Positions 2,194 through 51,485 of a stretch of 64,000 nucleotides of DNA are shown piece after piece. The notes beneath the pieces were generated by a model that worked only from the letters and a program-made list of their open reading frames with translations, was not told the DNA's origin and made no database searches. The stretch is taken from NCBI GenBank assembly GCA_020381345.1, contig GCA_020381345.1_3636.1; one strand, 5' to 3'. This DNA is from a phage. The translations under genes and the position numbers were made by a program. The number at the start of each line of letters is the position of its first letter. Position 1 is the stretch's first letter.

Positions 2194-2439
2194 ATGAAAA
2201 GCAATAAAGGTTATAACGGTTACAAAAACAAAACTCATTGGAATGTAAGCCTTTGGATTAATAACGATGAGTCATTGTACCGGTTGGCCCAAGGATTTAT
2301 TAACGCTAATGCTAATCGTAATGATGCGGCGCGGGATATGATGCTTTTTCTGGAGCTAACCGGACAAGATAAGACCCCGGACGGCTTCAAGTACAGCACT
2401 ACGGCGATCCGTGCCGCGATGGTTGGAATGAAACACTAA
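2194..2439 (+). CDS. hypothetical protein (81 aa)
   Basis: ORF with RBS AAGAGGTAAACACC-ATG. Confidence 0.55.
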   Translation: MKSNKGYNGYKNKTHWNVSLWINNDESLYRLAQGFINANANRNDAARDMMLFLELTGQDKTPDGFKYSTTAIRAAMVGMKH

Positions 2440-2516
2440 AAGCACATAGCCGCCTTACCCTGGGGCTGTGGTATCGGCCCCATGAATAAGGTTACTAACA
2501 GAAGAGAATAAACACT

Positions 2517-2621
2517 ATGAAACAGAAATTAATCGATGCAGTGATCTTGGTTATTGCCCTGGGTATTGGCCTGATTGCAACCATGTCTAATATGATCTTG
2601 TCTTCCAACGGTATCGGGTGA
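2517..2621 (+). CDS. small hydrophobic peptide (34 aa), not in ORF track
   Basis: Hand-translated MKQKLIDAVILVIALGIGLIATMSNMILSSNGIG; RBS AGAAGAGAATAAACACT-ATG; single predicted TM helix. Confidence 0.4.
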   Translation: MKQKLIDAVILVIALGIGLIATMSNMILSSNGIG

Positions 2622-2630
2622 GGTTGGCAA

Positions 2631-2846
2631 ATGATCACTAACAAAACAGGCAAAACAGAATTTTTACGCAACTTACAGATCGGCAAGCCTGAGATCTGGT
2701 ACTGCACTAAAACACCGCGTGACGAAATGAAAGACTTCACCGCCACGCTGCAACGGGTAAAGATATCTATCACGCAGAAAAAGGCCTTACTAGTGGTGGA
2801 AGGGGAGATCCCCCAAACCGTTGTTATAGTTGAGCGTACAGCATAG
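2631..2846 (+). CDS. hypothetical protein (71 aa)
   Basis: ORF with RBS GAGGT upstream. Confidence 0.5.
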   Translation: MITNKTGKTEFLRNLQIGKPEIWYCTKTPRDEMKDFTATLQRVKISITQKKALLVVEGEIPQTVVIVERTA

Positions 2847-2937
2847 TTTAATTTATACCGATACCCGAAAATTAACCAACAAAGCATAAACAGGCGGTTA
2901 CCGCCGCCTTAAACGTAGCAGAAAGAGGATAGACACA

Positions 2938-3228
2938 ATGAAAAAGATGATCGCAGTGGTTGCCCTGGTTGTTGGACTTAGTGCGCCTGCAATGGCTAAT
3001 GAGCTGGCAAAAGAGGTTAATCTAACGGATATTCATGCCGTCAATCGAATCGGGGTTACTTATCGCTTATGCCTTGCCACTAAAACTTTTAATGACGGTA
3101 CAACAGAGTACTACGGATTTGAGGGTATCCGGTGCGGTGAACTTGCTCGCGACCTTAAGGAAGATCCAGACCTGGAAGATTTGCCGATGACGGTAAACGG
3201 TAAAGCTTACGTAAACCGCCAACAATAA
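2938..3228 (+). CDS. hypothetical secreted protein (96 aa)
   Basis: N-terminal signal-peptide-like MKKMIAVVALVVGLSAPAMA; RBS AAAGAGGATAGACACA-ATG. Confidence 0.6.
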   Translation: MKKMIAVVALVVGLSAPAMANELAKEVNLTDIHAVNRIGVTYRLCLATKTFNDGTTEYYGFEGIRCGELARDLKEDPDLEDLPMTVNGKAYVNRQQ

Positions 3229-3244
3229 GTAAGGGAGATGTAAA

Positions 3245-3436
3245 ATGAATACTGAACAAGTTAGAAAGGTATTGGCGGTACTGCGTTATCATAATCATAG
3301 AAAGGTCATAGACGATCCTGATTATGTAGATTCAAGCCTGGAAGAAGACACGCTACAAGCTATCAGCCATATGCAAGAATTGCTTAAGCGCATGACAGAG
3401 AAAAACCGACCGGACTACATAGGGGGTAAAATATGA
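3245..3436 (+). CDS. hypothetical protein (63 aa)
   Basis: ORF with RBS AAGGGAG upstream. Confidence 0.5.
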   Translation: MNTEQVRKVLAVLRYHNHRKVIDDPDYVDSSLEEDTLQAISHMQELLKRMTEKNRPDYIGGKI

Positions 3437-47611: not shown

Positions 47612-47962
47612 ATGAAAGATGGGGATAAGCTGCTATATCTTAAAGTCCCCCTTGAAATACTATCTATGTCAAAAGTTTTGAATGACACAACTGGGGAGGT
47701 TGTTGTTCTTGACTTGTATGACAAGATCGTATACTGCTACCTGCACAACTGGTATAAGCTTGGAGGAAATTCACGCTTCACACCAAGCACAAGGAAAATT
47801 GCAGCAGATGTTGGGATAAAGAAAACAAAAGCAGCAGCGTGCGTTAAAACTTTAGAATGTGCAGGAGTGGTTGAAACATCCACACAAGGGAGAGGTAAAA
47901 GATGCACATTTTCCAAAGTTTTGCCACCAGAAAAAGTTATTCGAATGTCAACAACTGGTTAG
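47612..47962 (+). CDS. putative DNA-binding protein (116 aa)
   Basis: HTH-like segment TRKIAADVGIKKTKAAACVKTLECAGVV; sits just upstream of the iteron array. Confidence 0.5.
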   Translation: MKDGDKLLYLKVPLEILSMSKVLNDTTGEVVVLDLYDKIVYCYLHNWYKLGGNSRFTPSTRKIAADVGIKKTKAAACVKTLECAGVVETSTQGRGKRCTFSKVLPPEKVIRMSTTG

Positions 47963-48035
47963 ACCAGTAAAAACTTAAATATCTGTACTATAAGGATTCG
48001 TATGTTTTATGTTCGCTCTGGAACAGAGGTTAGTA

Positions 48036-48121
48036 ACTGTCCGTGATACGGACACTACTGTCCGTCACGCGGACACATCTGCCCGTAATACGGACACTAA
48101 CTGTCCGTGATACGGACACAT
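48036..48121. repeat. four tandem ~21-22-bp iterons, each a GTCCGT-N4-ACGGAC palindrome
   Basis: Units start at 48036, 48057, 48079 and 48101; the third is degenerate (GCCCGT). Confidence 0.75.
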
Positions 48122-48250
48122 AAAGAATATAACTAAAATAACTAAATAATAAAAAATAAAAGATCTAGTACTTATGGTACTAAAGTACATATACTTAACT
48201 TATGTAGAATATACTAGATCCTAAGTACCATGTTTTAAATTTATTACTTA
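48122..48250. other. AT-rich tract with GTAC-containing palindromes (possible DNA unwinding element)
   Basis: About 130 bp of strongly AT-rich sequence right after the iterons, including AGTACTTATGGTACT. Confidence 0.4.
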
Positions 48251-48623
48251 CTATAGGTAGTGTCGGCCCTTCATTGGCACTCGCCTACGAGGGGCGAGAT
48301 GCCGGGCCTCCGTAGTGCACACAATAACAGAAGTGCATACATGCAGGTATGTTAACATGTGTGGTAGCGAAGCGATAGCGCAGGCCAAAGGCCGAGCACT
48401 AATGTGGGCCACCGACGAAAGCTTGCCAGCGCCGTAAGGAGTCGGTTAAGAGTCTCCCGCGCGAGTTTGGATAAAGTTTATGTGTGGAAACGGACAAGGA
48501 GGCCCCTAAATAGCCCCACAGCTATATAAACTATACCAGGTAAGGCAATCGCACCAGTTTGATAGAAAAGCTCGTTACAAAGCGATACAGTGAGTTTTTC
48601 TATAACTTGAAGAGGAGGCAGCT

Positions 48624-49477: not shown

Positions 49478-49720
49478 ATGTTTAAGGTTAAGCTCGTTTT
49501 TCGTTCCATGAATGAGGATTATTTAGAAGATGAAGGTGAATTTCGTGCACTGGATGATGCAATAGATTTTGCCAACGACTTAGCTTGTATGAATACGGGT
49601 TATGGGTTATGTTGTTGGGATGGTGGTGTTCAGATCGGTGATAGCAAGATCTTCTACTTCTACCCTGAGCCCGATAACAAACAAATTAAGTATGTTTTAT
49701 TTATTTGTGCTTTACAATGA
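49478..49720 (+). CDS. hypothetical protein (80 aa)
   Basis: ORF track. Confidence 0.5.
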   Translation: MFKVKLVFRSMNEDYLEDEGEFRALDDAIDFANDLACMNTGYGLCCWDGGVQIGDSKIFYFYPEPDNKQIKYVLFICALQ

Positions 49721-50007
49721 GGTTGTTTTCGTGTATCATGATGAATATCCAATTTAAAGATGAATTTGATGGCTTTATCTCCGGATGCTTTGAAACAGGG
49801 TTCGGAGAAGACTGAGTTCCCCTTAGAGGGCTTGATAGTGCACCACACTTAAAATGGTAGGGGCAGCCAGCACATGACGATGTGACCCCAGCCAACCTGT
49901 AATAAGGTCGAGCCAAAGCGCGGTAATAGGCTCTGGTAACCCACTTGTTGGGTCTTGTTGGTCCAGGACGCTGGACAAGTCGCAGGGAATACCACCCTGC
50001 GGCGAGC

Positions 50008-50036
50008 TTGACAATCAGTGTTTGCTATGATAAAAT
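50008..50036 (+). promoter_or_regulatory. sigma70 promoter
   Basis: TTGACA, 17-nt spacer, TAAAAT; preceded by hairpin CGCAGGG..CCCTGCG. Confidence 0.55.
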
Positions 50037-50064: not shown

Positions 50065-50403
50065 ATGGCGGATACAACTAAAAAGCGTCGCCGTAGAGGC
50101 AGACCTCTGAAAGAGGAGTCCAACGCCATTCAGCTAGAGAAGAACATCCTTGATATGAAGGAATCTTTTATAGCGATGGTTCCAGAAGCTCACAAAGTTT
50201 TAAGAGAGCTGATGTTGGACCCGAAAACCAAACAAAATATTCGTCAAAGCATTGCAGAGTATGTTCTTGACAAGGCAGACCGAATGCAGGAAGAATATGA
50301 TGAGATGTTTGGTGAAGAGGAAGAGGTGGTAGTAGAAGAGGCTGAAAAACCAGCACCTTTTATGCCGTTTACCACAGAAATACAGCCTGTTAGCAATAGC
50401 TAA
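50065..50403 (+). CDS. hypothetical protein with Arg-rich N-terminus and acidic C-terminus (112 aa)
   Basis: ATG 50065 with RBS GGAGG; N-terminal KKRRRRGRP. Confidence 0.55.
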   Translation: MADTTKKRRRRGRPLKEESNAIQLEKNILDMKESFIAMVPEAHKVLRELMLDPKTKQNIRQSIAEYVLDKADRMQEEYDEMFGEEEEVVVEEAEKPAPFMPFTTEIQPVSNS

Positions 50404-50499: not shown

Positions 50500-50574
50500 G
50501 CCCTGTTAGCTTAGTGGATAAAGCAGCGGCCTTCTAAGCCGTTGACACTGGTTCGAGTCCAGTACGGGGTGCCA
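50500..50574 (+). tRNA. tRNA-Arg (anticodon TCT)
   Basis: Hand-folded cloverleaf: acceptor GCCCTGT/ACGGGGT, anticodon loop CTTCTAA, T-loop TTCGAGT, encoded CCA. Confidence 0.7.
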
Positions 50575-50704
50575 AGTTCTTTTTAATGTAGCTTACTTTA
50601 GCAGAGTAAATCTTCGGCAAGTGGCGGTAACCACTTTACCGATACCTCATAGTTAGTGGTGAGAACACTAGCTATTTTAAAAAGAATTTAAATATTAGTA
50701 TTTA

Positions 50705-50792
50705 GGTGAGTTAATTCCGTAGGGGTAGCGGGGCAGACTGTAAATCTGTTATCATTGCGATTCGGGTGGTTCGACTCCATCACTCACCACCA
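50705..50792 (+). tRNA. tRNA-Tyr (anticodon GTA), long variable arm
   Basis: Acceptor GGTGAGT/ACTCACC, anticodon loop CTGTAAA, T-loop TTCGACT, CCA; 88 nt. Confidence 0.6.
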
Positions 50793-50906
50793 AATTTATA
50801 TTTTTAAATGCATAAATCATACAGATAATGGCATTGATATTTATCGTCGTTTATACTAGTCACTAACTGCTCGAAAATCAGTGTCATTATCAGTATTGTT
50901 TATAAA

Positions 50907-50997
50907 AGAGGGTAGGGAGCAATGGTGCTCAAGCGGTCTTGAAAACCGTCCCGTTGAGGATTACTCGATGATGGTTCGATTCCATTATCCTCTGCCA
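50907..50997 (+). tRNA. tRNA-Ser (anticodon TGA), type II
   Basis: Acceptor AGAGGGT/ATCCTCT, anticodon loop CTTGAAA, T-loop TTCGATT, CCA; 91 nt. Confidence 0.6.
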
Positions 50998-51095
50998 TAT
51001 TGTTGACCTTGTAATTAAGCGAAAGCCGGAAGCAGAACCGGATTATCAAATGTTACAGTCGTCATCGCCGACTAGCAACATGGTCAACATACTGA

Positions 51096-51192
51096 GCTAG
51101 GTAAGCCCTTTGGCAAGGGCGAGGATTTTTAATCCTGAAAATAGACGAGGTAGTCGTTGAATACATAGGTGGTTCGATTCCATCACCTAGCA
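51096..51192 (+). tRNA. atypical tRNA-like element (97 nt), anticodon uncertain
   Basis: Acceptor GCTAGGT/ACCTAGC, D-arm GCCC/GGGC, T-arm GGTGG-TTCGATT-CCATC, but non-canonical anticodon arm, 29-nt extra arm, A at position 8, no CCA. Confidence 0.35.
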
Positions 51193-51199
51193 CCTTTTT

Positions 51200-51275
51200 G
51201 CTGATGTAGCACAATTGGTAGTGCAATTGATTTGTAATCAATAGGTTGCAGGTTCAAGTCCTGCCATCAGCACCA
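51200..51275 (+). tRNA. tRNA-Thr (anticodon TGT)
   Basis: Acceptor GCTGATG/CATCAGC, anticodon loop TTTGTAA, T-loop TTCAAGT, CCA. Confidence 0.7.
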
Positions 51276-51276
51276 T

Positions 51277-51351
51277 GGCCCTGTAGCTGGAAGGTTCAAG
51301 CAAGCGACTCATAATCGCCAGACGGTGGTTCAATTCCACCCAGGGCCACCA
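51277..51351 (+). tRNA. tRNA-Met or Ile2 (anticodon CAT)
   Basis: Acceptor GGCCCTG/CAGGGCC, anticodon loop CTCATAA, T-arm GGTGG-TTCAATT-CCACC, CCA; D-stem weak. Confidence 0.55.
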
Positions 51352-51362
51352 AATAATGAATA

Positions 51363-51439
51363 CTCCGCGTAGCTCAGCTTGGTAGAGCGCCTGATTTGGG
51401 ATCAGGAGGTCGAGTGTTCGAATCACTCCGTGGAGACCA
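51363..51439 (+). tRNA. tRNA-Pro (anticodon TGG)
   Basis: Acceptor CTCCGCG/CGTGGAG, D-arm GCTC-AGCTTGGTA-GAGC, anticodon loop TTTGGGA, T-loop TTCGAAT, CCA. Confidence 0.7.
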
Positions 51440-51485
51440 CTTTCAGTTATACTTTAAACATATACAAACAAAAGGAACCTTTAAA

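Follow-up and report, generated by a model that had tools for sequence, protein, structure and literature searches.

ROOL and GOLLD are phage-borne, pseudoknotted RNAs of unknown function that often lie near tRNA islands, and GOLLD is often longer than 800 nt (PMC12286853). Theta ribozymes, which are of the hepatitis delta virus (HDV)-like type, have been found adjacent to viral tRNAs (PMC10879173). In T4, species 1 and 2 (rnaC and rnaD, annotated 'small, stable RNA') are small stable phage RNAs co-located with tRNA genes. To our knowledge, no function has been assigned to either. Here, we describe an RNA element in a 64,000-nucleotide stretch of phage DNA, contig GCA_020381345.1_3636.1 (hereafter the window, by which the whole stretch is meant). 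The window belongs to an rV5-like (Vequintavirus) coliphage that shares 95–98% identity with Phage 203, nomine, FFH2 and rV5 in blastn comparisons. The plus strand at 49816–50007 probably encodes a non-coding RNA, which we infer to be a discrete molecule. Judged by sequence comparison, the centre of this block (49860–49936) is the window's single copy of a pseudoknotted RNA fold outside all Rfam 15 families.

Highly structured, phage-borne and often near tRNA islands, ROOL and GOLLD are the closest analogues of the element by biology (PMC12286853). However, ROOL is large like GOLLD, whereas the core described here measures ~80–110 nt, or ~190 nt with the appendages found in rV5-likes, and the element has no Rfam match to either. 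ROOL and GOLLD are RNAs of phages and prophages; in contrast, the element belongs to virulent phages that infect Gammaproteobacteria, T4 among them, and was not found in 5,426 complete Escherichia coli genomes, prophages and plasmids included.

Fold and covariation of the core

The sequence-only reading had placed a GC-rich block without open reading frames (ORFs) at 49760–50007. GC content is 0.52–0.55 across 49800–49999 (150-nt windows), against 0.33–0.42 in most of the flanking sequence, but 49760–49815 is the tail of a 32-codon ORF, and the true non-coding GC-rich block is 49816–50007. ORFs are listed on both strands across this block; they cannot be conserved genes, because relatives ~95–98% identical to the window over the region carry 1-, 3- and 5-nt indels within it. 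The plus strand folds at −89.8 kcal/mol (z = −2.6), with two of 200 shuffles folding equally well, while the minus strand is weaker against its shuffles (z = −1.5).

The conserved 50 nt were aligned for 31 distinct sequences, and a mutual-information scan was run on 42 sequences. Covariation and a covariance model define a three-way junction domain at 49892–49930. Its closing helix, P3, joins 49892–49894 to 49927 and 49929–49930 (C49892–G49930, C49893–G49929 and A49894–U49927; alignment columns 6–44, 7–43 and 8–41), leaving A49928 (column 42) bulged. P2 is an invariant hairpin of ACCU (49895–49898) and AGGU (49905–49908) with the loop GUAAUA (GUAAYA across the fold), and P4 consists of two pairs, G49912–C49921 and C49913–G49920 (columns 26–35 and 27–34). 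Because the pairs of P3, P2 and P4 hold across the alignment, the core reads as a three-way junction with the strands CGA (49909–49911) and GGUAA (49922–49926). About 30 core nucleotides are invariant, most of them unpaired or within P2. Members of the family are recognized by, in order, P3 (3 bp and the bulge), P2 as ACCU-GUARNA-RGGU, CGA, P4 (2 bp) and GGUAA, and the window copy carries every one of these elements at 49892–49930.

All 279 base-pair cells of the 31-sequence alignment contain standard pairs. The covariation score is 0.326, compared with 0.077 ± 0.015 in shuffles, none of which reached it (0/500), and sliding the 3′ partners by 1–3 columns as a control lowered pairing to 24–44%. 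The P3 pair 8–41 alone appears as A-U (17 sequences), U-G (6), C-G (4), U-A (3) and G-C (1). The mutual-information scan recovered the junction pairs unprompted, with three column pairs paired in every sequence and a fourth in 41 of 42. A local hairpin, CCC...GGG around the loop GYGCGGUAA, was also considered as P3 and rejected, as it showed no covariation and 77 of 500 shuffles reached its score; an earlier register of P3 was likewise wrong and was replaced by the bulged form derived from mutual information.

A further hairpin, P1, precedes the junction in every lineage, and its sequence differs strongly from one lineage to another. In the window, the outer stem GGGG/CCCC (49860–49863 and 49886–49889) encloses the internal loop CAGCCAG and an inner hairpin, CACAU-GACG-AUGUG (49871–49884), which shows compensatory changes between lineages. 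In a sister lineage of the rV5-likes (L042-type), both P1 stems are compensated, as GGAAC/GUUCC with CUACG-GACG-CGUAG; the outer stem is GGGAA/UUCCC in T4 and AAAGG/CCUUU, AAAGC/GCUUU or AAAGA/UCUUU in other T4-likes. Complementarity and covariation support a pseudoknot between CCAG of the P1 internal loop (49867–49870) and CUGG in the tail 3′ of P3 (49933–49936). It takes the forms CCAGC/GCUGG and GAGG/CCUC, both kept in sister sequences, and GCCG/CGGU, ACAC/GUGU, GAAG/CUUC, CGGAA/UUCCG, ACCAA/UUGGU and GGGUA/UACCC elsewhere.

The same helices were assessed in the T4-B alignment, which represents the larger T4-like subgroup. There, P1 pair 8–55 is G-C in 11 sequences, C-G in three and A-U in one, pseudoknot pair 14–109 is C-G (10), A-U (4) or G-C (1), and pair 15–108 is G-C (10) or C-G (5); none of the three is ever unpaired, and none of 500 shuffles reached the covariation score of the whole structure. 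The automatic finder for P1 and the pseudoknot was noisy, so these pairings were curated by eye and tested afterwards. Compensatory changes are seen in P1, P3, P4 and the pseudoknot, and structure prediction with homologues, which the sequence-only reading had proposed as a check, yields a three-way junction and pseudoknot supported by covariation. Since many of the G-U pairs would be A-C mismatches on the opposite strand, the plus strand, which is also that of the surrounding genes and tRNAs, is taken as the functional one.

Rfam 15 (4,227 models) gave no match over 49740–50020 at E values up to 10, and elsewhere in the window it returned tRNAs only, plus chance matches. ARAGORN and the Rfam tRNA and tmRNA models call neither a tRNA nor a tmRNA at the element. 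Nor did any Rfam 15 family match the homologous sites of T4, three other T4-like loci, the Vibrio phages, Pylas and phiWec188 at E values up to 10. R1, a covariance model built for the junction with the window copy in its seed alignment, retrieved that copy at 49887–49936 (62.8 bits, E = 1.4e-15) as the only match in 64 kb. R1 scores members at about 48–70 bits, and four members outside the seed (L229, L207, L211 and L034) reached 47.5–70 bits, while bacterial contigs chosen for an exact 17-mer scored at most 30 bits. The element is single-copy per genome. In 185,579 representative genomes, 111 exact 17-mer matches were found, about the number expected by chance, none with the rest of the motif. 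Homology to rnaC and rnaD was rejected: with filters off, R1 gave two chance matches in the T4 tRNA region (~10 bits, E ~0.4), neither over these genes, which lie at 70.9–71.2 kb in T4, compared with 64.9 kb for the element. The fold is absent from Rfam 15 and was not found in the literature searched; a part of it may be included among the 8,495 unnamed candidate phage RNAs catalogued in 2023 (PMC10690425, a source available to us in part).

Distribution and gene context

In blastn searches, the block matched 119 rV5-like records and ~470 T4-like records, the latter over 43 nt (49888–49930) at 90–93% identity. With a more permissive search, 1,050 records were retrieved in total; overall, the core matches ~1,000 of 50,697 phage records. 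Lineages beyond the T4- and rV5-likes were found by pattern scans and further BLAST searches. By these comparisons, the core is kept in at least 11 unrelated lineages of virulent phages of Gammaproteobacteria. They include T4-likes, rV5-likes and their L042-type sister lineage, Phapecoctavirus, the N4-like Klebsiella phages Pylas and KpCHEMY26, Kagunavirus and Vibrio phages of 128–140 kb, and the core is also present in uncultured viral or metagenome contigs (L037/L211, L039, L046/L208 and L229). T4, rV5 and Vibrio phages share the element at ~90% identity. Nearly all of the phage records inspected leave it without annotation. Conservation in relatives, on which the sequence-only reading had staked its proposal of a small RNA or regulatory leader, is thus extreme, and the proposal gains support from a core kept in so many lineages with its helices preserved by compensatory changes. 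A scan of viral contigs with the P2 loop left open retrieved two families of coding sequences and nothing else.

The sister lineage is represented by uncultured contigs of 120–141 kb (L042, L044, L045, L207, L209, L215 and L227). It is absent from the phage record collection, where the best match has ~80% identity over one third of the query. Some host labels among the matching records look doubtful: 18 'Campylobacter phage' records (MG065658, MG065672 and others) are ~95% identical to rV5-like coliphages across the region, and 'Pseudomonas phage PsgM04F' (OR584014) shares 95% identity with E. coli Phapecoctavirus over 130 nt around the element.

The T4 match lies directly after denV, within the annotated start of vs.8 (AF158101 64,253–64,912; locus L001 1491–2150). 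In close relatives of T4, a stop codon in the vs.8 frame precedes a conserved MRTFLTGPYLSLMNAF (Met-Arg-Thr-Phe-Leu) start, which argues that the T4 annotation is over-extended and that the element is intergenic; vs.8 is probably ~40 codons shorter than annotated. The shortened Vs.8 has a weak PHROG match to a terminase large subunit family (phrog_2, E = 1.3e-5) and, in our own reading of its sequence, contains a Walker-A-like GGRQSGKS.

The RNA is always co-oriented with its neighbours, which vary by lineage. In Phapecoctavirus, tRNA-Thr and tRNA-Gly lie on either side of it; in L039 it is embedded in a tRNA array, in L229 it follows the final tRNA of an array at a distance of 17 nt, and in Pylas it comes after the tRNA array. 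The rV5-likes and L042-type contigs have it ~500 nt ahead of the tRNA cluster. Kagunavirus carries it past the lysin gene, ahead of an early promoter, and L037 has it at the 3′ end of a helicase-nuclease operon, opposite convergent genes.

In Pylas (MH899585, L199), the core is held in a 1-kb unannotated gap after the tRNA array (2327–3344) that has features of its own. This gap contains two T-arm-like hairpins (GCGGUUCGAUUCCGC, and UUAGGUUCAACUCCUAA followed by ACCA), a tmRNA-like tag frame, CAUAAAU-GCAAACGAUGAUGUUGUUCUGAUGGCUGCUUAA, that reads ANDDVVLMAA-stop, and a GC-rich hairpin with a U-run (~3230–3255) that by eye resembles an intrinsic terminator. Rfam tmRNA_permuted scores 33.7 bits there, under its gathering score of 47, and ARAGORN calls no tmRNA. 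The gap may be an atypical phage tmRNA-like gene.

HNH or T5orf172-type genes adjoin the element in three unrelated lineages, those of L046, Vibrio F96 and 1.063.O, within a few hundred bases (L046 2195–2731, L025 932–1489 and L201 1761–2300). These homing-endonuclease-like neighbours are a possible vehicle for its horizontal spread. Horizontal transfer itself is indicated by near-identical 17–40-mers in otherwise unrelated phages. The same two observations could suggest that the conservation acts at the level of DNA, as a homing-endonuclease target, a recombination hotspot, a single-strand initiation site or a replication signal, the more so with a probable origin (iterons at 48034–48119) 1.8 kb away in the window. 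However, the helices are kept via G-U intermediates, which work on one strand only, as RNA. A DNA site bound by protein would have no need of the covariation seen in the pseudoknot and three-way junction, and the orientation always follows transcription. We therefore consider a DNA-level element very unlikely.

Peripheral modules and neighbouring features in the window

Upstream of the core lies a 5′ module (49816–49859) that is nearly invariant between rV5-likes and L042-type contigs. It comprises the hairpin CCC-UUAGA-GGG (49820–49830), CUUGAUAG, the hairpin AGUG-CACCA-CACU (49837–49849) and the linker UAAAAUGGUA. L042-type contigs have a second copy of the module (CCC-AUAGA-GGG, CUUGAAAG and hairpin) 3′ of the core, so that a hairpin-CUUGAWAG-hairpin arrangement is found on both sides. 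They also carry a promoter, TTGACA-17-TATACT, whose −10 box ends ~7 nt before the equivalent of window position 49816, which suggests that the 5′ end of the RNA is likely to be near 49816.

Downstream of the core, all on the plus strand, three hairpins follow. The first, ACCCA-CUUGU-UGGGU (49939–49953), is weakly terminator-like in a terminator scan and appears dispensable, being deleted in the rV5-like contig L224. L015 and L204 carry an A-to-G change in the second, GUCCAG-GACG-CUGGAC (49961–49976), so that a U-A pair becomes U-G. The third, CGCAGGG-AAUACCA-CCCUGCG (49981–50001), is the one that the sequence-only reading had emphasized. It exists as described, but it is a 3′-terminal appendage of the rV5 lineage, found in all rV5-likes examined (with the loop variant AACACCA) and absent from L042-type contigs, while the conserved element is the core at 49860–49936. 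These rV5-specific hairpins are lineage-specific decorations that probably serve stability or the definition of the 3′ end.

As a stable 7-bp GC-rich hairpin directly before a promoter, and with the element at operon ends in two lineages, the third hairpin might be read as ordinary punctuation, ending or stabilizing the upstream transcript with the remainder of the block as spacer. However, no U-run follows it (GCGAGCTTGACA does), the terminator scan omits it, and we do not regard it as an intrinsic terminator for lack of that U-run. Its absence from the sister lineage also argues against such a role, and a spacer would not be 90% identical in T4, rV5 and Vibrio phages with 100% pairing and covariation. 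Of all the explanations weighed, this is the one we find hardest to credit.

The promoter just 3′ of the hairpin, TTGACA-17-TAAAAT (50008–50036), was correctly recognized in the sequence-only reading. It is of the sigma-70 type, matches 11 of 12 consensus positions, has an extended −10 TG and is conserved in L042-type contigs. It belongs to the downstream gene (50065–50403), which encodes 112 amino acids with a basic N-terminus (KKRRRRGRP) and an acidic C-terminus. The product has no Pfam match and falls in PHROG 3330, a family of unknown function; the gene is a neighbour and not part of the RNA. A tRNA cluster (50500–51440) lies beyond it. Within this cluster, the tRNA at 50705–50789, which is annotated as tRNA-Tyr in rV5, is detected by Rfam (39 bits) and overlooked by ARAGORN, ARAGORN alone calls a tRNA-Ser at 50907–50997, and an ARAGORN tRNA with a 4-base anticodon (atcc) at 51096–51194 scores just 35.5 bits with Rfam. 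At the homologous locus of rV5_ev156, the tRNA cluster is followed by three small genes and then the terminase large-subunit gene.

On the 5′ side, the 32-codon ORF (MRLFSCIMMNIQFKDEFDGFISGCFETGFGED, 49717–49815, plus strand) starts with an ATG that overlaps the stop (ATGA) of the ORF at 49478–49720. It is an annotated coding sequence in rV5_ev156 and HdK5. Its C-terminal KDEFDGF is retained in the sister lineage, where L044 has a shorter version ending KDEFDGF*. A candidate sigma-70 promoter on the plus strand, TTTACA-17-TATCAT (49711–49739; 10 of 12 positions, by consensus match), could drive this small ORF and the RNA in the rV5 lineage.

Farther upstream, a putative replication initiator is followed by an iteron array and a first GC-rich block; three small genes and then the 32-codon ORF lead from there to the RNA block. 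The initiator ORF (47612–47962; PHROG 12838 'replication initiation protein', HTH_36) is directly followed by four tandem iterons of 21–22 nt (48034–48119; TAACTGTCCGTGATACGGACAC), each an inverted repeat, and then by a stretch whose GC content falls as low as 0.24; this region (48034–48250) looks like a phage replication origin. The first GC-rich block (48250–48550; GC 0.54–0.55), also free of ORFs, is conserved in 119 rV5-like records only. Rfam offers nothing credible for it: rli43 reaches 26 bits, where its gathering score is 100, and that hit lies over the AT-rich origin region. It was rejected as a related copy of the RNA studied here, given that the two have no repeat in common and that it is confined to those 119 records, and it remains a separate candidate non-coding RNA.

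Possible roles of the RNA

The reading that we prefer, with about even confidence, is that of an autonomous, stable, trans-acting structured RNA that binds a conserved partner and is not a switch for the downstream gene. Such an RNA would be transcribed together with its neighbours, from its own promoter in the sister lineage and inside tRNA transcripts in others, and would then be released as a stable molecule that functions as a module on its own. The partner, conserved among enterobacteria and vibrios, might be a small molecule or else a protein or RNA of the host, and would be bound by the ~30 invariant nucleotides, most of them unpaired. The near-identity of unpaired nucleotides in otherwise dissimilar phages points to contact with a common host factor of Enterobacterales and Vibrio, or else to a catalytic or ligand-binding core. 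A self-contained RNA is favoured over a leader by the diversity of gene context, by copies located between tRNAs or at operon ends and by the separate promoter of the next gene in the window.

Several observations weigh against this reading. P2 never varies and rests on complementarity, so covariation cannot prove it. The pseudoknot helix of the window is just 4–5 bp, and the excess of self-pairing over cross-pairing of pseudoknot strands between lineages is only moderately significant (81 of 5000 permutations). The T4-likes always carry the element upstream of vs.8, sometimes with one gene between, and have an additional conserved 3′ hairpin, GCCA-WGGAA-YGGC; both features are leader-like. 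Phapecoctavirus and Pylas have a distal AGGUUAG that could, in the manner of a switch, compete with the 5′ strand of P2.

The T4-like hairpin (L003–L041) lies ~40–70 nt after the core, between the pseudoknot and the vs.8 start. It is strictly conserved with GGA in its loop and shows no covariation, and L010 and L019 have an insertion of ~33 nt just 5′ of it. A small ORF in this 3′ extension (AUGYGCC...) was rejected, as the AUG is ACG in some members and the ends of the frame vary. No vs.8 homologue was found in the window, so the association of the element with vs.8 in T4-likes does not carry over to it.

These last features bear on the possibility of a cis-acting leader or riboswitch-like aptamer, in which a sensed ligand or protein would control read-through into, or translation of, downstream genes (vs.8 in T4-likes; here the PHROG 3330 gene and the tRNAs). 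Three-way-junction riboswitch aptamers with a pseudoknot closing the fold resemble the element in size, covarying stems and invariant junction nucleotides. The element is always co-oriented with downstream genes, the T4-likes keep it upstream of vs.8 with the conserved 3′ hairpin, the L042-type promoter would make the RNA the 5′ leader of a long mRNA isoform, and Phapecoctavirus and Pylas offer a possible alternative pairing, UAACCU/AGGUUA. However, the downstream gene is inconsistent across lineages, and L037 has nothing downstream on that strand. The element lies between two tRNAs in Phapecoctavirus, and in Kagunavirus and the window a separate promoter precedes the next gene. No conserved terminator or platform sequestering the Shine-Dalgarno sequence was found, the terminator-like hairpin at 49939–49953 being deleted in L224, and no Rfam riboswitch matches. 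A leader is therefore possible but doubtful. Of the two alternatives offered by the sequence-only reading, a leader of the next gene is the weaker, because that gene has its own strong promoter and the RNA elsewhere sits between tRNAs or at an operon end.

The frequent proximity to tRNA genes also raises the question of a new class of self-cleaving or processing ribozyme that would cut polycistronic and tRNA-array transcripts, as theta ribozymes do beside phage tRNAs. Like the HDV-like and theta ribozymes of gut phages, which adjoin viral tRNAs, the element is small, phage-encoded and tRNA-associated (PMC10879173). It is intergenic and co-oriented in a variable context, and rV5 has a polynucleotide kinase/phosphatase gene ~3 kb upstream of it. 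In our own reading, the order of its strands (5′ strand of P1, 5′ strand of the pseudoknot, hairpin, 3′ strand of P1, junction domain, 3′ strand of the pseudoknot) is that of an HDV-like nested double pseudoknot. This order matches in rV5- and T4-likes, but a plain loop replaces the P3/L3-like hairpin in Phapecoctavirus, Pylas and L229. By the criteria applied to HDV-like ribozymes (PMC10879173), the element lacks the catalytic C at J4/2, a position within 5 nt of a tRNA end and an Rfam HDV match. At the equivalent of the first J4/2 base no C is conserved, as the linker starts with U, C or A or is absent, and the distance to a tRNA end is 17 nt in L229 and ~100 nt or more in Phapecoctavirus (phiWec188). 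No other Rfam ribozyme family matches either, and the domain equivalent to P4, which is dispensable in those ribozymes, is the most conserved part here, indeed the conserved heart of the element. With ~30 invariant positions, the element exceeds what is usual for small ribozymes. A ribozyme is thus an unlikely explanation.

Within the preferred reading of a trans-acting RNA, a narrower and rather improbable version would make it a counter-defence factor common to T4, rV5-like, phi92-like, N4-like and Vibrio phages. It would sequester, as an aptamer or decoy, a conserved component of host immunity, such as a tRNA-targeting nuclease or a signalling nucleotide. Such a role would account for the association of the element with phage tRNA islands, for its absence from the host genomes searched and for the invariance of its unpaired nucleotides across unrelated phages.

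Few viruses have been studied as much as T4, yet the element has been hidden there in the over-extended vs.8 ORF; phages of the rV5-like and Phapecoctavirus groups find use in phage therapy. That so small an RNA keeps ~90% identity in phage families with little else in common suggests a shared interaction with the host. Since the fold is compact, its helices are defined by covariation and the phages are genetically tractable, the function is directly testable. Alongside ROOL and GOLLD, the element is a third RNA linked to phage tRNA islands, and a much smaller one; it may help to explain roles of these islands beyond codon supply.

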